Shown here: one piece after another, positions 1 through 42,741 of the stretch
How positions within the stretch are numbered: position 1 is the stretch's first letter
Layout: every line of letters begins with the position of its first letter
Source: Bacteroidales bacterium
GTDB taxonomy: Bacteria > Bacteroidota > Bacteroidia > Bacteroidales > ML635J-15
NCBI GenBank assembly: GCA_963676165.1
Contig: OY781043.1
Location: 2,233,342 to 2,297,341, forward strand
Length of the DNA: 64,000 nt
Direction of reading: 5' to 3'
The notes under the pieces: generated by a model
Told to the model about the DNA's origin: nothing
Seen by the model: only the letters and a program-made list of their open reading frames with translations
Database searches by the model: none
Translations under genes and position numbers: made by a program

Positions 1-611
1 ATTACACCAAAGGTTATATCGATGAAAAAGTACTGAATAATAAGCCTATCGATTTATTCCAGCGTTGGATAAAAGAGGTAGAAAGCATGCAAATTCCGGA
101 CTATAATGCAATGATTCTATCGACAACTGATCACTTGTTGCAAAGTCACAGCAGAGTTGTCTTGCTGCGTGAAATATTAGATGATGGCTTACAGTTTTAC
201 ACCAATTACCTGAGCAATAAGGGCAAAGAAATTCAAGGTTCAAACCGAGTTAGTTTACTCTTCTACTGGGCAGGCTTACAACGGCAAGTTCGCATTGAAG
301 GTCGAATAAAAAAATCGAGCAAAACCGCTTCAGACAAGTATTTTGAAACACGCCCAAGGGCATCACAAATCAGTGCATGGGCTTCAGATCAGAGTCAAGC
401 ACTTATTTCCAACGAAGCTTTCAAGCAAAAGCTCAATGAAATAGAGACAAAATACAAGAACAAACGCATACCACGTCCTGATTTTTGGGGTGGCTATATT
501 GTCACTCCAGAATTGTGGGAGTTTTGGCAAGGACAACCAGCGCGTTTGAATCAGAGATTTTTGTATGAAATAAATGGCAAATCATGGAAGATCTCTCAAT
601 TGCAACCATAA
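1..611 (+). CDS. pdxH: pyridoxamine 5'-phosphate oxidase (N-terminus at or beyond window start)
   Basis: Frame is open from nt 3 (YTKGYIDEKVLNNKPIDLFQRWIKEVE...), upstream of the listed Met. PdxH-like motifs are present: LLFYWAGLQRQVRIEG, RPDFWGGY, WEFWQG, RL..R. Confidence 0.9.
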   Translation, partial: YTKGYIDEKVLNNKPIDLFQRWIKEVESMQIPDYNAMILSTTDHLLQSHSRVVLLREILDDGLQFYTNYLSNKGKEIQGSNRVSLLFYWAGLQRQVRIEGRIKKSSKTASDKYFETRPRASQISAWASDQSQALISNEAFKQKLNEIETKYKNKRIPRPDFWGGYIVTPELWEFWQGQPARLNQRFLYEINGKSWKISQLQP

Positions 612-677
612 AAAAAGCAGGAACTTTCATTCCTGCTTTTCAGTATTTTTCATTGACAGAATTAGTTAATCATAATT
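576..677. repeat. 102-bp direct repeat, copy 1 (pdxH last 11 codons + stop + terminator + last codons of the convergent gene)
   Basis: Manual alignment with 1324-1425 gives 95/102 identical with no gaps. Confidence 0.9.
617..640. terminator. intrinsic terminator hairpin after pdxH
   Basis: GCAGGAA-cttTca-TTCCTGC followed by TTTT, with an A-run upstream, so it could act in both directions. Confidence 0.6.
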
Positions 678-1323
678 ATACTGTTTACGAAATTGGGGAC
701 ACCAAATTTTGGCACTTCATTAAATTAACATTTACCATTTCCACCAAAGGATAATTGTTCCTACAGCGCTTTCTTTCCGATCCCGAATCACAGGATGTTA
801 TTTTTAACTGTTCGGGATGAAAACGACTGTTATTCGTAAAGGTGTTTTCACGAAAGAATGCGGAGCAAGCAATATTCCCGTGGGGTAAACCACCAACGGC
901 AAGCAAACCTTTAATTCACTTTCTTTTCGGCAAAGAAAGTTCACAAAGAAACCTGGCGCTGACCCGCATTTTTCTATTAATCGGATATGTTTTCCGTGAC
1001 CCGCGAATCTCCTCGTACCTGCGGGTCGCGGCTCTAAAAACTCCAAACACACCTCGATTAATAACGAAAAATCCACGAAGGCGCCAGAACTCGTGTCTGG
1101 CTAAGGTGTTTTAAAAATAGTCTAAGGCTTCGTACTATGGATACTGCGTTTTAAAGTTTATAATCAAGCCTACAAAACATCATTAGGTTCCCTATTTAAA
1201 AACAAATTGATGTTTTATATTTTGCTATCAGGGCACCTAAACTCTCATACAAAAGCGACAAGCAGCAAATATCGTGGTGATTAGGCTTTTGTTGCATTGA
1301 AAGTGTCGCAAACAGGAAATGCT
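678..1323 (+). other. 646-bp non-coding, GC-enriched, hairpin-dense insert (candidate structured RNA or decayed element)
   Basis: Only short implausible ORFs. Stems at 780-787/811-818, 919-926/932-939, 994-1004/1021-1031, 1083-1088/1096-1101, 1255-1260/1304-1309 and 1262-1269/1288-1295. Two of these stems contain T:G pairs that are wobble-compatible only if the plus strand is transcribed. Confidence 0.35.
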
Positions 1324-1425
1324 GGCAATTCGTGGAAGATTTCCCAATTGCAGCCATAAAAAAAACAGGAACTTTCATTCCTGCTTTTCAGTATTTTTCA
1401 TTGACAGAATTAGTCAATCATAATT
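1324..1425. repeat. 102-bp direct repeat, copy 2 (orphan pdxH 3' stub GNSWKISQLQP* + terminator + true 3' end of the T9SS fragment)
   Basis: 95/102 identical to 576-677. 5 of the 6 differences inside the pdxH stub (5 of 7 across the whole repeat) are synonymous third-codon-position changes. Confidence 0.9.
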
Positions 1426-1844
1426 CTGCGAGTTGCAGTTTCGCCTTTTACAGTTTCAATGCGAAGCAAGTAAACTCCATCGTTAAGCATATCAAGGTTC
1501 ATAGAAACTTGAGTAGAATTCAATTCTGCTTCACGATAAACAGCTTGTCCAATCATATTGAAAACAGTCACTGATTCCAAACGATTGTCAGCATTCAAAT
1601 ACACATTTCCGTTGCTTACAGGGTTAGGATACACTTCCAAACCAGAGATATTGTTGCTTCCAACACTAGCAAGACCTTTCACAAAGTCATCAGCATCACG
1701 AGGGAGAATTTCATATGAATCGTAAGAATAATCCACACAACCAGTCAACTGGTAAGTACTATCTGGTGTTGGAGTCATATCGTCCCAGTAACTATAAAGA
1801 ACATCATCAACACGAAGATTACCAGATCCATCATTTGCAAAAAT
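1410..1844 (-). pseudogene. 5'-truncated remnant of a T9SS-secreted protein (C-terminal sorting domain only)
   Basis: The C-terminus YPNPVSNGNVYL...GVYLLRIETVKGETATRRIMID is a T9SS CTD. The frame is open upstream to a stop at about 1845 with no signal peptide and no plausible start. Confidence 0.55.
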
Positions 1845-2009
1845 TTAATTTATTACCGCAATTTATTCATCTACTCTCTGTGCAAAATTATGGATTATTC
1901 TTTAATTCACCTTGCAATTTATAAACTTAAACATAAATTAACAAAATCCTTTGGTTAAGCTCACAAATTACTTGACTAATTCATTGTTAACTATTGAATT
2001 AATCACCGT

Positions 2010-4073
2010 TTAAGCATAGATTTTAACTCGCGGTAAATCGATAAAAATTTTTGTTCCTTTTTCAAGTTCAGATTCCACATGGATTTCCCCTTGCATCGCA
2101 TTAATCGCCATTTTACAAAAAGCCAAACCTAGTCCATGAGAAGTGTACCTCTCATCAGTATGCGCCTGAACATCTGACACATAATCATCAAACAAATGTA
2201 TTTGTTTCTCAGGTGATATTCCATAACCATTGTCTTCCACAACAATACGGAAAGCAGGCACTGAATTTAACACAAACTTTTCAGCATAAATGACAATTTC
2301 TGATTCTTCAGGGGTATGCTTAATTGCATTATCAATTAAATTGTCAAATACACGCGACAACAAAGCCGCATCTGCATAAACAGTTACATTTTCATTCACA
2401 GTGGATTCTAATCTAATTTGCTTGACATCTGCTCTGAATTTCAATTGTAAAATGCTAGATTTTAGAAGAAAAGCCACATTAACAGGAGCTGCATTCACTT
2501 TCATTTCCGCCATTTCAAGTTTCCGAATATCAAGCAAATTAAGTACAAGCATTTGCATGCGAATAGTGGATTCTTTGACGATACGAACAAAGTTTGCATC
2601 GGGAGATTCAATGACATCTGTTAAGTGTAAAATTGTCCCGATTGGAGCTTTCAAATCGTGAATTAGCATATGAGACAATCGTTCTTGATACATTTGTAAT
2701 GATTTCATTTCGCGATTATTCTCTTCAACTTTTGCAGCATTATCTTTAAGGTTATCATTTTGAGCTTTTAATTCTTTTGTCCGCTCATCCACCATTAGCT
2801 CAAGCTTTTCATTCATTCCTTGAAGCTTAATTGTCATCTCAAGACATTTCTTTTTCTCATTGATAGCTTCTTTCACCAAAGCATATTCTTGAATTAAAAT
2901 AAACACAAACAGTCCATAATGTGCAATGTAAATTGAGTTGATGTATCCGAGAGTTAGAAACACATCATTCAAGCCACCAAATAATACAACAAGCATTGAA
3001 ATCAATGTCACAAAACCACCTTTTCTATTTCTGAGTAAGACATGTCCTAACACATGAAAATAAAGATAAAAAACAATAACACTAAGCACAATAAGACTTA
3101 GAAAAACATATTTTGTTATTGCATAAGTGGAAAAGAACACAATAAAAACAGCATTAATTGCATACAATACTGATAATATTTTCAAAACAATCTGCTTGTT
3201 TTCCTTTGGATAAAGTTCATTAAAATAATAAACAACAATCAGGGGTAATATGTATGCAAAGAAATGAGCGATTTTAAGAAAATAGCTAAGTGAAAGATTA
3301 GGAACAATATAATAAATCAATCGTCCTTCATTGGTAATTGCCAAGAAAAAGGCAAAAAGTGAAAGGGCTGTGAAAATGAGGTTTTTTCTATCCTTATACA
3401 GTATCGTTTTCAAAAAATGATAAAGGAATATCATGAGTAGAATTCCAGAGACCAAAGCTTGCCAAAATAACAAGCGATGAGATTTCTGCATTATTTTATC
3501 TGCAAGTCCAAAACTAACAAAGTCTGTCATTCCTCCATTTGACATATGAAAGTTTGAGACATGCACAACAACATGATACACGTATAAATGGTCTGATTCA
3601 TGGATTGCCTCGTTGAGGAACACGTGTTTATGCTCTAATGAAGGAATGGTAGATGACTTGTCTGTGCCAGGTTTGCCTTGCGACATGATCAACTCGCCAT
3701 TGACATACACAGCCATACTGGAACCAGCAGGCTTAATATTCATAGCAAAGTTCTGGTTAGCATTATCAAGGAGAATTTTAAGGTAATAAGTTGCATAACC
3801 CAACTCAGGATAACTTTTACTTTTAGGTTGATTACTCCAGGGTGCAGGTGTCTCAATAAGCTGAAAATCGGCATCTTGATCCATAGCATAAAACTCTGGA
3901 TCAAGCTGTTGATCAAAAACAAATTTCCATGTCCCATTAACCGGCACAATCGGATTTCCCTCAAAATTCCATCCACGCAAATCCAACACTCCATCTTTTA
4001 ACAGAGTATTTTCAGAAGCAGAAATAAAACCGGCAAAAAGAAGACTAATTACACCTAAAACTATCGCTCTCAT
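2010..4073 (-). CDS. sensor histidine kinase with 7TMR-DISM-type extracellular and 7-TM input
   Basis: Signal peptide, then an extracellular domain (LDLRGWNFEG..VNGTWKF), about 7 TM helices, a coiled coil, H-box HDLKAPIG, and ATPase boxes DNLIDNAIKHTP, DNGYGI, GLGLAFCK. Confidence 0.85.
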   Translation of the reverse strand: MRAIVLGVISLLFAGFISASENTLLKDGVLDLRGWNFEGNPIVPVNGTWKFVFDQQLDPEFYAMDQDADFQLIETPAPWSNQPKSKSYPELGYATYYLKILLDNANQNFAMNIKPAGSSMAVYVNGELIMSQGKPGTDKSSTIPSLEHKHVFLNEAIHESDHLYVYHVVVHVSNFHMSNGGMTDFVSFGLADKIMQKSHRLLFWQALVSGILLMIFLYHFLKTILYKDRKNLIFTALSLFAFFLAITNEGRLIYYIVPNLSLSYFLKIAHFFAYILPLIVVYYFNELYPKENKQIVLKILSVLYAINAVFIVFFSTYAITKYVFLSLIVLSVIVFYLYFHVLGHVLLRNRKGGFVTLISMLVVLFGGLNDVFLTLGYINSIYIAHYGLFVFILIQEYALVKEAINEKKKCLEMTIKLQGMNEKLELMVDERTKELKAQNDNLKDNAAKVEENNREMKSLQMYQERLSHMLIHDLKAPIGTILHLTDVIESPDANFVRIVKESTIRMQMLVLNLLDIRKLEMAEMKVNAAPVNVAFLLKSSILQLKFRADVKQIRLESTVNENVTVYADAALLSRVFDNLIDNAIKHTPEESEIVIYAEKFVLNSVPAFRIVVEDNGYGISPEKQIHLFDDYVSDVQAHTDERYTSHGLGLAFCKMAINAMQGEIHVESELEKGTKIFIDLPRVKIYA

Positions 4074-11113: not shown

Positions 11114-11338
11114 AATACTTGTCAGAGCTAAAGCCCTCTGAGTTTTGCATTTAGCCTCTAACCTCGACATAATATCGAGGTAAATAGGCTTATGAAATTG
11201 AGTTGAGTCAATCCGGGATTGCCCGAAAAAAGTGACCTAATAACTGGATAACCTGTGAAATGCAACGACTAACCACGACCTTCAGGTCGTGGTGGGAAGT
11301 AAATGCAAGTGGAAGGGGCTTTAGCCCTGACAGTAAAA
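11114..11338. repeat. MITE-like / REP-like palindromic element
   Basis: Long imperfect terminal inverted repeats (TACTTGTCAGAGCTAAAGCCC...TTGCATTTA...CCTCGAC versus the reverse complement of CCACGACC...TAAATGCAA...GGGCTTTAGCCCTGACAGTA). Internal hairpins CCTCGAcataatatCGAGG and CCACGACCttcaGGTCGTGG. Confidence 0.4.
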
Positions 11339-18751: not shown

Positions 18752-20272
18752 TTATTCAATTAATACTTTCCCTGAATATTGATTGTTTATTAAAAGTATA
18801 TAAATGCCAGTTTCAATATTACTTACATCAATTGGGATACTGTTTTTATAACTGTATTTTTCAAAGACAATTCGTCCAAACATATCATACATCTTTATCT
18901 GCTTAAGTGGTTTGTTGTCTTTAGATTCAATATGCAATATGGATTTAACCGGATTGGGATAATATGAAATGTTTTGATTAAAATCAGGTTCTTCAATGGC
19001 ATTCCAACCTTCTGACAATGGGAAATTTAATAAACTATCTGCTTTCATTACGACATTGTATTCTGATCCACTAAAACCCGTAAAAAGATATCCGCCATCG
19101 TATGTTTTACTTATGCCATCAACTCTAAATGCTCCATATGTATAATCTTCTCTAACCAAATTAATCTCATCTAAACATACCATATCAGTAGAATAATAGT
19201 TTAAAAAATAATTGCCAATATCGCCTATTCGAAAAGATCCTAAAACTGCAAAACCTTCTGTCGTCTCTATTAATTTGTATAAATGAATAATATTATAACC
19301 TCCGCGTTGAATAACCCTCTCAGAAATCACATTCCCCAAAGCGTCCATTTTCACCAAAATACCAACAACTATTCCAAAATCTGTATCTGGCGTACTTGTT
19401 TCAGTGTAATATCCTCCTAAAACAAAGCTCCCATCAGGCAATTCCAATACTTCAAAAGTGTCCGGATAAGAATCTCCCCATAGTTTATACCACAACATTT
19501 CACCACTTGCACTAAGTTTAATAACCAAACCTTTATTAAAAGTCTTTTCAGTATCACCTTCATGCCGACCTGTATTACCCACAAGTAACAAATCTCCATC
19601 TTCTGTTAATGTTGCACCTTTTATAGAGCCATTTTTTAAATTTGGTAGATCGGGCATAGTCCATGTCCAGATTGTGTCTCCTACATAATCTGTACACACC
19701 ACATAAGGTTTGTCTTCATGTTCTGCATTAAAGGAACAGGACTCGCCATATGCATAAATTCGTTCGTTTATCGAATCAATTTCTGCACCACAAAAAAAAT
19801 CAAGATATTCATAAGTTGGAGCTTCAATGTCAGGATAGCCAGGGGCATAGCCACCGTAAGTCTTATACCATAAAACTTCAGCAGCCTGATTGAAACATAC
19901 TAATGAAGCAGCTTGATCAATATAGTCACCGGTTTCAGGGTGAAAAAGCTGTGACTCTCCATAAAGAAGGAAGCGGCTTGAGTCGATACGTGTTAGTCCT
20001 ATAGGGAAAATAGATATATCCAAATCAAGGTATCGTGCATCCAATACATTGCCTGATGAATCCCAAATAACACGACCTGCTAATCCAAAAAACATTCCAT
20101 AGTTGCCTGTTGATAAATAGGTGGAATCACTGATCTGAAATGAGTTTTGTTGAAAAATTAAAGGAACGGTATCGTTAAATAGATACGAGAACTCATGATA
20201 AAACTGTTCAGGTTGAGCGTAAGTTATCGTTTTTGCAAAAAGCAAAATGAGTAATAAATGATATTTTTTCAT
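18752..20272 (-). CDS. secreted beta-propeller-like protein with T9SS C-terminal sorting domain
   Basis: Start moved to MKKYHLLLILLFAKTITYAQ. CTD is YYPNPVKSILHIES...GIYILLINN. Confidence 0.75.
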   Translation of the reverse strand: MKKYHLLLILLFAKTITYAQPEQFYHEFSYLFNDTVPLIFQQNSFQISDSTYLSTGNYGMFFGLAGRVIWDSSGNVLDARYLDLDISIFPIGLTRIDSSRFLLYGESQLFHPETGDYIDQAASLVCFNQAAEVLWYKTYGGYAPGYPDIEAPTYEYLDFFCGAEIDSINERIYAYGESCSFNAEHEDKPYVVCTDYVGDTIWTWTMPDLPNLKNGSIKGATLTEDGDLLLVGNTGRHEGDTEKTFNKGLVIKLSASGEMLWYKLWGDSYPDTFEVLELPDGSFVLGGYYTETSTPDTDFGIVVGILVKMDALGNVISERVIQRGGYNIIHLYKLIETTEGFAVLGSFRIGDIGNYFLNYYSTDMVCLDEINLVREDYTYGAFRVDGISKTYDGGYLFTGFSGSEYNVVMKADSLLNFPLSEGWNAIEEPDFNQNISYYPNPVKSILHIESKDNKPLKQIKMYDMFGRIVFEKYSYKNSIPIDVSNIETGIYILLINNQYSGKVLIE

Positions 20273-20337
20273 ACAATGGTTTATTAGTAAAATAATGAAC
20301 GTAAAATTACTTTTTCTTCCCCACAATGCAGTCTGTA
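20273..20337. repeat. gene leader/promoter repeat, copy A (functional, upstream of the 18752-20272 gene)
   Basis: ACAATGGTTTATTAGTAAAATAATGAACGT...ATGCAGTCTGTA aligns with 20624-20686 with a few substitutions and small indels. Confidence 0.6.
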
Positions 20338-20623
20338 GCACTAAAAATGGTAAAATAATTATCAGCTTACAGTGCCTTTATGCTATAAAGTTACACTTTA
20401 ATATCATACCAATCAAATTAATTTACTTTTATTTTTTACAATTATACCCTATTTTCTTTACACCTAACCTCCATAAGCCTCCCTTCACCTATTAACCGCA
20501 TATTATCTGTACACTTACAGTTTTATTATTCAATACTGTCAGCTATTTTTAAAATTTATTTTCTATTTCCCAACCACATGTTGTTGTTTTATGCTTGAAT
20601 AAATCAAAATGAAACTGTTTCTT

Positions 20624-20686
20624 ACAATGGTTTATTAGCAAAATAATGAACGTGAAAATTGTTTTCTCCCCCAAATGCAGTCTGTA
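20624..20686. repeat. gene leader/promoter repeat, copy B (orphan)
   Basis: Same sequence family as 20273-20337. The position of the ATG is AAG, followed by a short decayed frame (KKQFHF...). Confidence 0.6.
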
Positions 20687-20918
20687 CAACAAAAAACAAT
20701 TAATCTGACAGTAATTTCTGTGCTTTTCTGGCTTAAGATTACAATTATTTCATGTTTTCACACACGCTTAGACCATGCAATAGTTTTCATGCACACACAT
20801 TGCACAGAACAAACAATGCTGAGAAAACGATATAAGTATTAAAGGAAAAATCTTAAAAATAAGCATATAATTTGCCGTGAAAGTATTATATTTGTTTGCC
20901 GAATAAAAAACTGTAAGA

Positions 20919-33914: not shown

Positions 33915-36900
33915 CTACTGAACAGATACAAATCGTTTGGTATCAATCAATTTATTATCCACAATTAAAGAATAAAGGTAAACCCCATCAATAAATGCTT
34001 CAGAAGAAATTATAATATGACCTTCACCATAACTTGATAATGGAATTGAATTCAAAATCTTGCCATTATTATCGCGAATTTCAATTCGAGCACTTTGCAC
34101 ATTATTCGGAATAAAATATCCAATGCTTGTACTTTCTCTCCAAGGGTTAGGTACATTCTGATACAATTTAGCATTATTCTCAGGAGCTGGACTTAATACA
34201 ATACCCGATGAACCACAGCAATCTGCAATAACATTTTCCAATGAATCAATTCGATCGGTTAAGTCATTGATTGCAACTTGTAAAGGTTCAATAATACTAT
34301 AAAGATCTACGGTACTACCACTTGTTATGCTCAAGTCTGTTCCAACTAAAGCGATATCCTGAATTTCATTGGTTGCATCTCCATCAGCTTCGGTGAATGA
34401 AGTTAAATACCCATTATTGTCAACCATTGCATCAACCTCGGCTTCGGTCAGATGTGTATCAGTATCGGTGTCATCAAGGTAAGGAGAAAGATCAATTGCA
34501 GTTGCAGTTCCATTATTTGTGATTGTTAAGTCGTTACCGACAAGTTGCAGATCCTGAATTTCGTTTGTAACATCCCCGTCCACTTCGGTAAATGAAGTTA
34601 AATAACCGTTATTGTCAACCATTGCATCAACCTCTGCCTCTGTTAAATGAGTATCGGTATCGTCAAGATACGGAGAAAGATCAATTGTAGTTGCTGCTCC
34701 GTTATTGGTAATTGTTAAGTCATTTCCAACCAATTGCAAATCCTGAATTTCGTTTGTTATATCACCATCAACTTCGGTGAATGAAGTTAAATAACCGTTA
34801 TTATCAACCAGTGCATCTACTTCGGCTTCTGTTAAATGAGTATCGGTATCATCAAGATACGGAGAAAGATCAATTGTAGTTGCAGTTCCGTTATTTGTGA
34901 TCATAAGGTCGTTCCCGACAAGTTGCAGATCCTGAATTTCATTTGTAATATCCCCGTCCACTTCAGTGAATGAAGTCAGGTAACCGTTATTGTCAACCAG
35001 TGCATCTACTTCTGATTCTGTCAATTGAGTATTTGTATCAATACCGGAAAGATCAATCGTACTACCACTTGTTATGCTCAAATCGGTTCCAACTAAAGCG
35101 ATGTCCTGTATTTCATTGGTCGCATCACCATCCACTTCTGTGAAGGAAGTTAAATACCCATTGTTACCAACCATTGCATCTACCTCTGATTCTGTTAATT
35201 GAGTATTTGTATCAATACCGGAAAGATCAATCGTACTACCGCTTGTTATGCTCAAATCTGTGCCTACTAAAGCGATATCTTGTATCTCATTGGTCACATC
35301 TCCATCCACTTCTGTAAAGGAAGTTAAATAGCCATTATTATCAACCATTGCGTCAACTTCTGCTTCTGTTAATTGAGTATCTGTGTTGTCCAGGTATGGA
35401 GTAAGATCAATTGTAGTAGCAGCTCCGTTATTAGTAATTGTAAGATCATTACCAATAAGTTGTAAGTCTTGTATTTCATTGGTCGCATCACCATCCACTT
35501 CTGTGAAGGAAGTTAAATACCCATTATTATCAACCATTGCATCTACTTCTGATTCGGTCAACTGAGTATCTGTATTGTCTAAATACATTGATAGATCAAC
35601 TGTTGTTGCATCATTTGTAAGACTTAATGTATTTCCTGAAAGCGTTAAATCTTGCTCATCTGTATTATCCAGATACAAAGAAAAATCAACCGTATTGGTA
35701 CCTCCGGACAGACTTAGTGTATTCCCTGCAAAACTTAGCTCCTGTGAGTCTGTATTATCAAGGTAGGTTGAGAGATCAATAGTGTTTCCATCCGTAATTG
35801 AAAGAGTATTGCCGGATAAGCCTAATTCCTGTGCTCCAGAAATAGACCAATCTGAACCATTCCAAATTTTCAATCTGTTATTTGTGCTATCATAAACCAT
35901 TAAACCTGTTTCCGTAGTAGAAATTAACCCTCCCAGAGTGGTTAATTCGGTTTCACTTAAACGGTTGACAAGAAAACCTTTGTTATTTTCAGACAAATCA
36001 ATACTCGCATTTAGATTTGGAGAAGCTGTACCAATTCCAAGTGTCATGCGGTCTGTTGCAGTTGTACCTCCAACAACAAAACTGTTTGACTGAGAACTAA
36101 CGGCATTTGTACCTAATGCGACAGAATAGTTTCCTCCTGCATTTGCTGAATAACCTAAAGCGACAGAATTAGTATCAGCAACTGAACTTGCACCAAGCGC
36201 CACAGCATATTGACCATCTAGTGTAATATCACTACCGATACCAACACTGAAATTCGCATTGATTGTCGAGAAATTACCAATACCGACAGAATGGTCATCA
36301 GTCATTAAAGAGTGGTATCCAATGGATATAGAGTATTCTGAACCTCCTCCTATTTGAGTTAGGTGACCGAGACCAATTGCTCCTGTTGAAAGCACATCTG
36401 ACAAGTTTCCAAAACCAATACCATATTGACCTGAAACTCTTGCATCGTACCCCATTAGAATTACATCATTATTATCCGGATCGCAATAAGATCCAATAAA
36501 AATTGTACGTGAACGATTATCATTATTATAATCAGCATAAGTTCCAATACCAACATTATCTTGTCCTTCTCTGTTTGTTCCACCGGCAAGATAACCTAAA
36601 TAAGTATTATTATTTGCATTTGTTGTACTATTGGTTCTGTTATTGTCCCAACCTGCACCATAACCGACAAATGTGTTTTTATCGGCATGTTCTGTATTAC
36701 CACCTGCACCATAACCTATAAAAGTATTACAATTCCCCACACCATTATCTTCTCCTGCACTTGAGCCAAAAAATGTATTCCCAATTCCTGTAGTGTTATC
36801 GTAACCCGGACCGCCACCACCAATTATAGTCATATATTCTCCCCATGTATTATCACTATAATTAGTTGCCGTAGAATTACCTTCTCCTCCAACAAAAGTG

Positions 36901-37436
36901 TTACCAGTTCCTGTAGTATTACTTCTTCCAGCAGTACTTCCAACAAAAGTATTATCACTTGCTGTAGTGTTGTTAAAACCAGCATCTTCTCCTATAAATA
37001 CGTTATCTCTACCTGTAGTGTTGGCCTCTCCACTTTCTTCACCGATAAACACATTATCAGACCCAGTTGTATTATTGTATCCGGCTTCTGTTCCAATAAA
37101 TATATTATCTGTTGCATTATTATTTAATCCTGTTTTTGCCCCAATAAAAACATTATCGGTTCCTATGTCATTGTTTTTACCTGCCTGATAGCCAATAAAT
37201 GTATTATCATTAGAAATTACAGTATTATTCACCAGCCCTCTTCCTGCCTGATAACCAAAAAACGTATTATTGCTACCTGAAGTTAATTCATAACCGGCGC
37301 TATCACCAACTACAGTGTTGAAATCACCGGTTGTACGATTATCCAATGCTCCATCTCCAGCACGATATTCCCCAGTTTGGGCATAAATTGCAATAGCTCC
37401 TAATAGGAAAACCAATAAGAGTAAAAATCTTTTCAT
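33915..37436 (-). CDS. 1173-aa repeat-rich surface/adhesin-like protein with T9SS sorting domain
   Basis: Signal peptide. The N-terminal half is made of short NTF.G..AG..NTTG..N.F.G repeats (adhesin-head or tail-fibre-like). Seven 58-65 aa tandem repeats follow, then CTD LYQNVPNPW...GVYLYSLIV. Confidence 0.8.
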   Translation of the reverse strand: MKRFLLLLVFLLGAIAIYAQTGEYRAGDGALDNRTTGDFNTVVGDSAGYELTSGSNNTFFGYQAGRGLVNNTVISNDNTFIGYQAGKNNDIGTDNVFIGAKTGLNNNATDNIFIGTEAGYNNTTGSDNVFIGEESGEANTTGRDNVFIGEDAGFNNTTASDNTFVGSTAGRSNTTGTGNTFVGGEGNSTATNYSDNTWGEYMTIIGGGGPGYDNTTGIGNTFFGSSAGEDNGVGNCNTFIGYGAGGNTEHADKNTFVGYGAGWDNNRTNSTTNANNNTYLGYLAGGTNREGQDNVGIGTYADYNNDNRSRTIFIGSYCDPDNNDVILMGYDARVSGQYGIGFGNLSDVLSTGAIGLGHLTQIGGGSEYSISIGYHSLMTDDHSVGIGNFSTINANFSVGIGSDITLDGQYAVALGASSVADTNSVALGYSANAGGNYSVALGTNAVSSQSNSFVVGGTTATDRMTLGIGTASPNLNASIDLSENNKGFLVNRLSETELTTLGGLISTTETGLMVYDSTNNRLKIWNGSDWSISGAQELGLSGNTLSITDGNTIDLSTYLDNTDSQELSFAGNTLSLSGGTNTVDFSLYLDNTDEQDLTLSGNTLSLTNDATTVDLSMYLDNTDTQLTESEVDAMVDNNGYLTSFTEVDGDATNEIQDLQLIGNDLTITNNGAATTIDLTPYLDNTDTQLTEAEVDAMVDNNGYLTSFTEVDGDVTNEIQDIALVGTDLSITSGSTIDLSGIDTNTQLTESEVDAMVGNNGYLTSFTEVDGDATNEIQDIALVGTDLSITSGSTIDLSGIDTNTQLTESEVDALVDNNGYLTSFTEVDGDITNEIQDLQLVGNDLMITNNGTATTIDLSPYLDDTDTHLTEAEVDALVDNNGYLTSFTEVDGDITNEIQDLQLVGNDLTITNNGAATTIDLSPYLDDTDTHLTEAEVDAMVDNNGYLTSFTEVDGDVTNEIQDLQLVGNDLTITNNGTATAIDLSPYLDDTDTDTHLTEAEVDAMVDNNGYLTSFTEADGDATNEIQDIALVGTDLSITSGSTVDLYSIIEPLQVAINDLTDRIDSLENVIADCCGSSGIVLSPAPENNAKLYQNVPNPWRESTSIGYFIPNNVQSARIEIRDNNGKILNSIPLSSYGEGHIIISSEAFIDGVYLYSLIVDNKLIDTKRFVSVQ
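34300..35565 (-). repeat. in-frame tandem repeat array, 7 units of 174-195 bp (two subtypes)
   Basis: Unit starts (CAACCAKTGCATC on the plus strand) at 34421, 34616, 34805, 34994, 35168, 35342 and 35531. Units encode LTE(A/S)EVDAMVDNNGYLTSFTEVDGD.TNEIQD... and are roughly 80-90 percent identical by eye. Shorter degenerate units extend to about 35830. Confidence 0.9.
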
Positions 37437-42312: not shown

Positions 42313-42335
42313 ATTGGCAAATTTTGATTTTGCAT

Positions 42336-42343
42336 CAAAGTTA
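42336..42343 (-). promoter_or_regulatory. candidate -7 box (TAACTTTG) for the 1572-aa gene
   Basis: Matches TAnnTTTG on the minus strand, 23 nt upstream of the ATG at 42312. Confidence 0.4.
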
Positions 42344-42385
42344 CCAGCAGATTGTATGAATATGGAAAAATCTGGTTAGCGGCAA

Positions 42386-42403
42386 GTTATCCGTGAGGAT
42401 AAC
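42386..42403. promoter_or_regulatory. perfect 7-4-7 palindrome GTTATCC-gtga-GGATAAC (candidate operator)
   Basis: Exact dyad about 50 bp upstream of the candidate -7 box. Confidence 0.4.
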
Positions 42404-42436
42404 AAAAGGTTAACATTATCTCTAAAGTAAACTATT

Positions 42437-42459
42437 TAACGTGAATTCGACGTAAGAAA
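42437..42459 (+). promoter_or_regulatory. box M: TAACGTGAATTCGACGTAAGAAA
   Basis: 20/23 identical to the reverse complement of box R, and 124 bp upstream of the 1572-aa gene ATG. Confidence 0.45.
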
Positions 42460-42718
42460 CCTAAAACAGAAAGTCATTTTGATGTCAGATTTAGCCTAAT
42501 AAAATACGAAGTAGTAACGGGTTACTTCAAGGATTTTTTAGGCAAAAGATGGTATTAAAATGGCTTTCCTTTACAGGCTTCAAATATTTCCCCATATTCG
42601 TTCATGAAATTTTCTCAAATTATCCCGATAGTCTTTCAAAAATTTCATTTGAATATGAAAAAATCTTTTGAAGCTGCCTGCCAGCCGGTTTACTTTTTAG
42701 ACGGCAGGCTGGTTTGGA

Positions 42719-42741
42719 TTTCTTAGATCGAACTCACGTTA
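42719..42741 (-). promoter_or_regulatory. box R: TAACGTGAGTTCGATCTAAGAAA (read on the minus strand)
   Basis: Overlaps the last five codons (NVSSI) and the TAA stop of the response regulator. Forms an inverted pair with box M around 259 bp. Confidence 0.45.

Follow-up and report, generated by a model that had tools for sequence, protein, structure and literature searches.

A protein-less insertion at the pdxH terminator of a Bacteroidales bacterium, probably a MITE-type element with a long target duplication

How did the last codons of a gene, together with its terminator, come to stand on both sides of a piece of non-coding DNA? The question is raised by a stretch of 64,000 nt from a Bacteroidales bacterium (GCA_963676165.1, contig OY781043.1, positions 2,233,342-2,297,341 of the forward strand), which is referred to as the window in the following. 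Near its left end, the 3' end of pdxH occurs twice in the same orientation, and a non-coding insert separates the two occurrences. The insert is probably a copy of a small transposable element that encodes no protein and belongs to the miniature inverted-repeat transposable element (MITE) type, inserted with a long target duplication that is centred on the terminator palindrome. Judged by its sequence, the element is best described as a discrete and previously undescribed unit of approximately 635 bp, with inverted-repeat ends and a conserved G+C-rich long hairpin at its centre.

Direct repeats around the insert

The locus comprises the following features. L006 and L007 are contigs from related strains, and T9SS stands for type IX secretion system.

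3-611, plus strand: pdxH (pyridoxamine 5'-phosphate oxidase), 5' end cut by the window edge, last 11 codons in repeat copy 1
575-677, no strand: repeat copy 1 (proximal), with the functional pdxH 3' end, the bidirectional terminator in intact form and, as a stub, 16 nt from the 3' end of the T9SS gene
613-640, no strand: terminator hairpin copy 1, AAAAGCAGGAA-CTTTCA-TTCCTGCTTTT, -13.9 kcal/mol on the plus strand and -17.0 on the minus strand
678-1322, no strand: inserted non-coding element, 645 bp between the repeat copies, without coding signal, absent from L007 and present in L006
1323-1425, no strand: repeat copy 2 (distal), with an orphan pdxH stub (K to N), a G to A change in the terminator and the true 3' end of the T9SS gene
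1361-1388, no strand: terminator hairpin copy 2, weakened as plus-strand RNA by an A.C mismatch (-7.2 kcal/mol) and nearly intact on the minus strand with a G.U pair (-14.6)
1410-1844, minus strand: fragment of a gene with a T9SS C-terminal sorting domain, open frame of 144 codons, first ATG at 1778 (122 aa)

Segments 575-677 and 1323-1425 form a gap-free direct repeat with 96 of 103 positions identical (6.8% divergence), and similarity is lost sharply at either edge. A preliminary description of this DNA had reported repeats of 102 bp; these are real, with 95 identical positions over that shorter span. Each copy includes the final 11 pdxH codons and the stop (G K/N S W K I S Q L Q P stop), the terminator hairpin and the last 16 nt of the convergent T9SS C-terminal domain (CTD) gene. 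The translation of pdxH itself matches a 212-aa protein with PNPOx Pfam domains at 100%.

Seven differences separate the two copies (A/T, A/G, C/T, T/C, A/G, G/A and T/C). Five are located in the pdxH stub, all at third codon positions; of the remaining two, one affects the terminator stem (617/1365) and one the T9SS stub (667/1415). For the pdxH stub, five of six differences had been described as synonymous. That they are mostly synonymous is correct; the count becomes five differences, four of them synonymous and one changing K to N. In copy 1 the terminator is a perfect 11-6-11 hairpin, and the repeat is centred on it: the midpoint of the repeat lies at 626 and the dyad of the terminator at 626.5, a centring that is found in 2 of 76 possible placements. 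With pdxH and its terminator left intact, the insertion was probably neutral for the host.

Empty and occupied sites in related strains

Two Logan contigs, L006 and L007, represent relatives, both with a pdxH that is 95% identical to that of the window. L007 is an exact empty site, in which pdxH, a single 103-bp copy and the T9SS gene are contiguous. L006 has the identical occupied left junction followed by the first 260 bp of the insert. The insert is an insertion that is polymorphic between strains, and the empty site that the preliminary description predicted for foreign or mobile DNA is present in a related strain.

Over 678-887, the window and L006 differ at 6.7% of positions, compared with pdxH values of 7.9% (third-codon sites) and 8.5% (4-fold sites). 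The insertion thus happened no later than the split between these two strains, and the left part of the insert has changed at an approximately neutral rate. The 6.8% divergence of the repeat copies can be explained in the same way, as neutral drift since an insertion older than the strain split suffices. The mostly synonymous pattern follows for the most part from the functional pdxH copy, which accepts only synonymous changes. It had been argued from this pattern that the copies came from different lineages and diverged while both were under coding selection; neutral divergence in place (6.8% versus 7.9-8.5%) makes that step unnecessary.

Repeat copy 2 and the single copy of L007 share 97 of 101 positions. 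At three sites, copy 2 carries the allele of the empty-site strain L007 and copy 1 that of L006. Such sharing, together with the five of five stub differences at third codon positions, would be expected of a decayed integrase-type element (a prophage, an integrative and conjugative element or an integrative and mobilisable element) that brought its own pdxH 3' end. Copy 1 would then be attL and copy 2 attR, and deletion of the genes would have left a remnant similar to a cis-mobilisable element (CIME). The anatomy is most closely matched by e14, which is bordered by the intact icd gene on one side and by an orphan 3' fragment on the other (PMC13626634), and it also recalls CIMEs, which are att-flanked elements without their genes (PMC5704250). 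This origin is nonetheless very improbable here. Neutral drift after an old insertion accounts for the divergence of the copies, and the alleles shared with L007 are explained by a recombination mosaic.

This mosaic is apparent in the similarity between the window and L007, which is 99.3% on the T9SS side and 95.6% in pdxH. The ranges compared include window 1426-1578 against L007 1429-1581 and window 563-584 against L007. In the 20 nt directly upstream of the repeat, 5-6 positions differ from L007 (YEINGKSW versus YKKDGKSW), which points to a recombination junction at the insertion site. The alleles common to copy 2 and L007 are best explained, on these alignments, by recent recombination, so no gene end borne by the element is needed. 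No more than two or three changes can be assigned to the orphan copy, namely K to N, the terminator G to A and possibly one more.

In GTDB genomes the nearest pdxH match was only 51% identical, and no integrase was found next to pdxH in more distant relatives, which also counts against an integrase-type origin. A scan of JGI metagenomes with a 20-mer of the terminator returned chance matches only. Seven viral scans yielded one chance match (L008) and were otherwise empty.

A second copy at an unrelated site

A homologous copy is present on contig Ga0450804_2172763 of JGI metagenome 3300040801, here called L026, of which 10 kb were seen. BLASTN, proposed earlier as a means of finding homologues, gave no match in phage and plasmid collections, either for the insert or for the L026 element; the homologue was reached through protein search. 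An exhaustive comparison of the translation of 821-1111 with 1.84 billion representatives returned a sole match, a 68-aa "hypothetical protein" whose alignment requires a frameshift. This protein is a spurious open reading frame (ORF) on the homologous DNA of L026.

The window segment 910-1158 corresponds to L026 172-421 with 88% identity (E = 2e-84), and 706-776 corresponds to L026 119-188 with 76% identity. Overall, the homology to L026 92-726 takes in both ends and the centre of the window element. The right ends have TTTTGT..TGCATTG..AAACAGGAAA in common and the left ends CTGTTT. The homology stops exactly where the 103-bp repeats of the window start, and no pdxH-like sequence is present in L026. 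Instead, the L026 element (630 bp) is flanked on both sides by TGGGTGTC, which is 8 nt long, or 13 nt with AAAA[A/T]T included. The element is enclosed by a unit of approximately 115 bp with perfect 13-bp inverted repeats, CCTGTTTTCCGAA and TTCGGAAAACAGG, of the same end type, and the insertion point is 5 nt away from a related inverted repeat. L026 thus shows a nested insertion into a short relative.

Since the L026 copy has the same ends and lacks a pdxH-like segment, the 103-bp repeat is target DNA duplicated on insertion. The same ends at two unrelated sites, with different flanking duplications, likewise indicate a non-autonomous, MITE-like element and not a site-specifically integrated one. 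The notion of the preliminary description that the integrating DNA carried its own pdxH 3' end is not supported, because L026 shares the ends and the core without any pdxH-like sequence and with a different flanking repeat of 8-13 bp. An integrase-type element would be expected to show the same att core in every copy, and neither the insert nor the 10 kb of L026 contains an integrase or a remnant of one. The surroundings of L026 are the kind of defence-island cargo (AbiE, RhuM, GmrSD) that would suit such an element.

Downstream of the element, L026 1044-10368 encodes AbiEi/AbiEii, RhuM, YhcG/DUF1016, an MreB-like ATPase and two GmrSD_N proteins. The 10 kb contain no integrase or transposase.

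Coding content and composition of the insert

The preliminary description saw no credible ORF between the repeats, and this holds. No ORF or stop-to-stop segment of the insert matches Pfam or PHROG families, and a concatenated query of the insert found no match among 5.8 billion predicted proteins. Protein cluster P0122 has no further member. A weak SIR2_2 match (E = 0.05) was not borne out by the exhaustive protein search. A decayed protein gene, which had been named as a finding that would speak against an RNA, is ruled out, as Pfam, PHROGs and the search of 5.8 billion proteins are all blank.

The reported G+C enrichment is likewise confirmed, with 52-53% over 951-1100 against 31-38% around it. 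ARAGORN detected no tRNA or transfer-messenger RNA in the region of the insert. There are no significant internal tandem or segmental repeats in the insert, and no further copy of the element, its ends or its core was found within the window.

Several other known systems were considered and set aside. A diversity-generating retroelement was rejected, as the mismatches are not confined to adenines of one copy and no reverse transcriptase is present among the neighbouring genes. A group II intron, a tandem duplication of a larger segment and an integron attC site were rejected on anatomy.

Ends and internal features

The ends and the internal features of the element are the following.

681-690, no strand: left terminal inverted repeat, CTGTTTACGA, pairing at 9 of 10 positions with 1306-1315
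1306-1315, no strand: right terminal inverted repeat, TCGCAAACAG, its terminal AAACAGGAAA common to L026
653-682, plus strand: sigma-70-like promoter match TTGACA-18-TATACT (11 of 12 positions), spanning the left junction, with the -35 box in the repeat and the -10 box from the end of the element
766-863, no strand: three-way-junction-like set of hairpins, diverging by 6.7%, about neutral, with no sign of structure conservation against L006
918-940, no strand: 9-bp hairpin, ACTTTCTTT / AAAGAAAGT, stem present in 3 of 3 copies, loop different in each
953-1087, no strand: G+C-rich long hairpin of 135 nt, with helices of 8 bp (outer) and 17 bp (middle) and an apical hairpin of 12 bp, CCGTGACCCGCG / TGCGGGTCGCGG

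From inverted repeat to inverted repeat (681-1315), the element measures 635 bp, to which 3 nt and 7 nt are added at the junctions. The inverted repeats are located within a few nucleotides of both direct-repeat boundaries, and the probability of such a match no more than 25 nt from both ends is approximately 0.007-0.011. At the position homologous to the left inverted repeat, L026 reads CCTGTTTTTGCG, and its ends are of the homologous form CCTGTTT / AAACAGG. With terminal inverted repeats, a flanking target duplication that is single-copy in the empty site and no coding capacity, the element has three of the features by which MITEs are recognised.

The L026 copy lacks the segment 777-909. Short direct repeats bracket this segment in the window, namely CTTTCTTT[C/T]CG (769/919) and CCACCAA[A/C]GG (741/890). 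It may be either a nested insertion in the lineage of the window or a slippage deletion in L026. The closing pair of the 918-940 hairpin is A-T in the window and G-C in both L006 and L026 (A918G, T940C). The long hairpin at 953-1087 forms the core of the 88% conserved block 910-1158.

Folding and the question of an RNA

As a second rival, the functional unit could be a structured non-coding RNA gene of a new class, with a plus-strand transcript running to the terminator of copy 2 and with mobility as a secondary trait. This is unlikely, yet it has a basis in the strong folding of the insert. Compared with shuffled sequences, the minimum free energy of the whole insert has a z-score of about -4.5 on each strand. 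For 945-1100, z is -4.7 when folded as RNA and -4.6 when folded as DNA. Two other intergenic regions of the window fold as unusually well as the insert, which means that a high density of hairpins does not by itself set the insert apart in this genome.

Conservation of pairing was evaluated against random mutants. In the left 210 nt (678-887), RNAalifold applied to the window and L006 gave six changed pairs, of which 6 of 6 were kept. The same "all kept" picture arose in 500 random mutants with the same substitution spectrum, and the L006 sequence of this segment was no more stable than the mutants (p 0.29 on the plus strand, 0.59 on the minus strand). The apparent covariation in 678-887 was therefore discarded as an artefact that random mutants reproduce, and this segment, which evolves at the neutral rate and has no excess of pair-preserving changes, offers nothing to an RNA gene.

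The core behaves differently. The L026 version of 945-1100 folds at -57.0 kcal/mol, whereas randomly mutated versions of the window core give -42.5 +/- 5.1 (p 0.006 for either strand). For the L026 block of 250 nt (910-1158), the value is -80.4 kcal/mol against -54.0 +/- 4.7, reached by 0 of 400 mutants. The 17-bp and 12-bp stems are identical in the window and L026, and the substitutions affect loops and the ends of helices. At 1050 and 1052, the window has A.C mismatches where L026 has perfect pairs. Covariation support amounts to one compensatory pair from 2-3 sequences, the A-T to G-C change in the 918-940 hairpin. Together, these comparisons indicate that the pairing potential of the core is under selection. 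Pairing kept between two copies that are 12% different, and the compensatory pair beside a loop that differs in each of three copies, would also be expected of an RNA gene. As the folding conservation is equal on both strands, RNA is not separable from a DNA palindrome or a single-strand hairpin, and a DNA palindrome fits as well.

The preliminary description had proposed a structured RNA with conserved stems. The part that stands is a core whose pairing is kept beyond that of mutants, equally on both strands; the left 210 nt do not share in it. The covariation analysis it had called for divides along the same line, with a core that is better folded than mutants and, in 678-887, no excess of pair-preserving changes.

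The assignment to the plus strand fares worse. Neither the folding nor its conservation favours one strand, and there is no Rfam match. Rfam was searched at E <= 1 with window 1-3000 and L026 1-1100, and at the gathering threshold with the whole window. Only terminator look-alikes were returned and no intron domain V, so that the Rfam search once proposed for the insert leads to nothing but sub-threshold look-alikes of terminators, and to no family for either copy. The promoter-like site at 653-682 does read into the element. It is of the sigma-70 type, takes its -35 box from the flank and is absent from the empty site L007, and no TAnnTTTG box of the Bacteroidota type occurs in the insert. 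The primary sigma factors of Bacteroidota are not known to use promoters of the sigma-70 type. That the site is functional in a Bacteroidota host is doubtful.

The terminator of copy 2, which had been thought to end a plus-strand transcript, is weakened on precisely that strand (-7.2 versus -13.9 kcal/mol in copy 1) and not on the minus strand, that of the T9SS transcript (-14.6 versus -17.0). Alternative pairing had also been suggested between one GCGGGTC and two GACCCGC motifs. The motifs do exist, GACCCGC at 961 and 998 and GCGGGTC at 1021, and occur nowhere else in the 64 kb; the upstream GACCCGC reads GACCCGT in L026.

The two other strongly folding intergenic regions are located far from the insert. 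Region 42313-42722 has z-scores of -5.8 on the plus strand and -3.7 on the minus strand and lies upstream of an ORF of 1572 aa. Region 11116-11336 (plus strand) is 220 nt long and adopts a closed multi-stem fold of -86.3 kcal/mol (z -8.1), with a closing helix of 18 bp, TTGTCAGAGCTAAAGCCC / GGGCTTTAGCCCTGACAG. It is found between a gene for a trehalose-6-phosphate synthase/phosphatase fusion and a small lipoprotein-like ORF, and belongs to no Rfam family. Its predicted fold would suit either a further inverted-repeat element or an RNA without annotation.

Proposed mechanism and points against it

For the favoured MITE-type element, the following course of events is proposed. A transposase that recognises ends of the CCTGTTT type would move the element in trans. 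At pdxH, two strand-joining events would have been staggered by 103 nt, approximately 51 nt on either side of the palindrome of the pdxH/T9SS terminator. Filling of the gaps would then have copied the final 11 codons of pdxH together with the terminator and the stop region of the T9SS gene, so that pdxH stayed whole and the distal side received an orphan stub. The insertion presumably preceded the split between the strains of the window and L006, after which the repeat copies would have drifted apart. The hairpin of the window copy would have gained mismatches and is probably inactive. The conserved hairpin may act in cis for the element, as a small RNA or as a DNA site or hairpin that takes part in transposition.

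A number of points weigh against a MITE-type element. Just three copies at two loci are known (window, L006 and L026), with one in the 64-kb window. No transposase or autonomous partner with matching ends was found in the scanned ORFs of the window or in the 10 kb of L026. A target duplication of 103 bp is far outside the ordinary range of DDE transposases. Unequal recombination after two insertions close to each other, or an insertion mediated by repair, could also have produced it. The inverted repeat spans few positions, and the probability attached to it was computed after the repeat had been noticed. The right third of the element (window 1159-1300) is not alignable with L026, and the length of the L026 flanking repeat is ambiguous (8 or 13 nt). 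Finally, the element ends resemble the target flanks at both loci, with GAAAT / AAAAT on one side and CTG / TTTTT-CG on the other. Because of these short resemblances, a microhomology-mediated process would also fit.

This last point leads to a third rival, a passive insertion with long target duplication that needed no dedicated transposase. Repair, replication restart or transformation would have introduced the DNA at staggered breaks with microhomology joins, and the inverted ends would be incidental. The class of event is known, with duplications of 46-423 bp and no mobility genes (PMC2853133), and the end/flank resemblances are those expected of it. The window also contains a second gene-end duplication of the A-B-A type, at 20223-20746. 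Against it stands the recurrence of the same unit with the same two ends at two unrelated sites, which indicates a defined element and not random filler DNA. In addition, the L026 duplication is short (8-13 bp) and its target is a related inverted-repeat unit, which is typical transposon behaviour. A passive origin is accordingly given a low probability.

The second duplication consists of 20223-20398 and 20580-20746, a direct repeat of approximately 170 nt with 130 of 162 positions identical, gaps included, and 181 bp of AT-rich DNA in between. The proximal copy contains the start codon and the leader of a gene for a 529-aa T9SS-CTD protein (18752-20341, minus strand). In the distal copy, the start is mutated (CAT to CTT on the plus strand), and ends of the CTGTTT type are absent.

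A further possibility, which is quite unlikely, is that the element represents an undescribed class of protein-less mobile DNA. The 135-nt hairpin would be its active part, as a folded-DNA substrate or a small RNA, and insertion would take place beside end-like palindromes, with symmetric cuts that produce variable duplication lengths. The terminator arm TTCCTGCTTTT resembles the element end TTCCTGTTTT, and in L026 the insertion point is 5 nt away from an inverted repeat of related sequence. Although as a lead only, these observations suggest that end-like targets are preferred.

Another lead only is the IS1595 group of ISfinder, which has ends of the form CcTGATT and 8-bp duplications.

Other features of the window

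The T9SS-CTD fragment downstream of repeat copy 2 matches PF18962 (E = 8.5e-13). No signal peptide is found in the 122-144 codons of the fragment, and its sole database match is the 122-aa product of the same genome. It may be either a truncated pseudogene or a gene for a short expressed protein. A -7 box of the Bacteroidota type, TAnnTTTG (TAATTTTG), is located at 1890-1883, in the AT-rich 160 bp upstream of the fragment.

Seven tandem copies of a 174-189-nt unit, 66-83% identical, occupy 34293-35576 inside an ORF of 1173 aa (33915-37436, minus strand). The product of this ORF is predicted to be a repeat-domain protein.

Significance

Long target duplications, of tens to hundreds of base pairs, have been reported for a few insertion sequences and for restriction-modification units, and there is no accepted mechanistic model for them. 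The locus offers a compact test case, with a small non-coding element, a short duplication at one site, a palindrome-centred duplication of 103 bp at the other and an empty site for comparison. If the element did belong to an undescribed class of mobile DNA, it would provide a handle on the mechanism of long and variable target duplication.

Two warnings can be drawn from the analysis. Mostly synonymous differences in a duplicated gene 3' end are insufficient to infer an integrase-type element with its own gene end. Similarly, an RNAalifold result in which all changed pairs are kept is meaningless for two sequences without a random-mutant control.

Comparison with known systems

The closest likeness is to MITEs. 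As in these, the element is non-coding, has terminal inverted repeats and a flanking direct repeat of the target, and leaves a clean empty site. It is present at unrelated loci, in one case (L026) nested in a shorter relative, and folds into long hairpins. In contrast to typical MITEs, its 635 bp place it at the large end of the size range, it occurs as a single copy in 64 kb, and no parent insertion sequence has been identified. Furthermore, the conserved part is an internal hairpin and not the ends, and the target duplication in the window measures 103 bp, compared with 2-10 bp for MITEs.

Variable and sometimes long target duplications are known from the IS1634 family. IS1549 and IS1634 produce target repeats of 8-514 bp without an accepted mechanism (PMC2266710), and the element does likewise, with 8-13 bp in L026 and 103 bp in the window. 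Its end begins with C, like the family consensus, whereas the rest of that consensus (C-----YT) fits some of the element ends only. Members of the family are autonomous insertion sequences of 1.5-2 kb, whereas no transposase is linked to either copy of the element.

"Insertion with long target duplication" of 46-423 bp was described for restriction-modification units (Nobusato et al. 2000; Furuta et al. 2010, PMC2853133). The common features are a repeat of more than 30 bp that flanks the insert, is single-copy in an empty-site relative and overlaps a gene 3' end, and the lack of a mobility gene. The known cases, however, are kilobases long and contain restriction-modification genes, whereas the element has no coding signal, ends in inverted repeats and is present at a second site with a short duplication.

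The e14 element in icd/icdC and the CIMEs show a similar anatomy, with an intact gene, an orphan 3' fragment beyond the insert, mainly synonymous differences between the copies and, in the case of CIMEs, no genes in between. The resemblance ends at the origin of the repeat. In e14 and CIMEs the proximal copy is borne by the element, whereas the repeat of the window is derived from the target, and no integrase is present.

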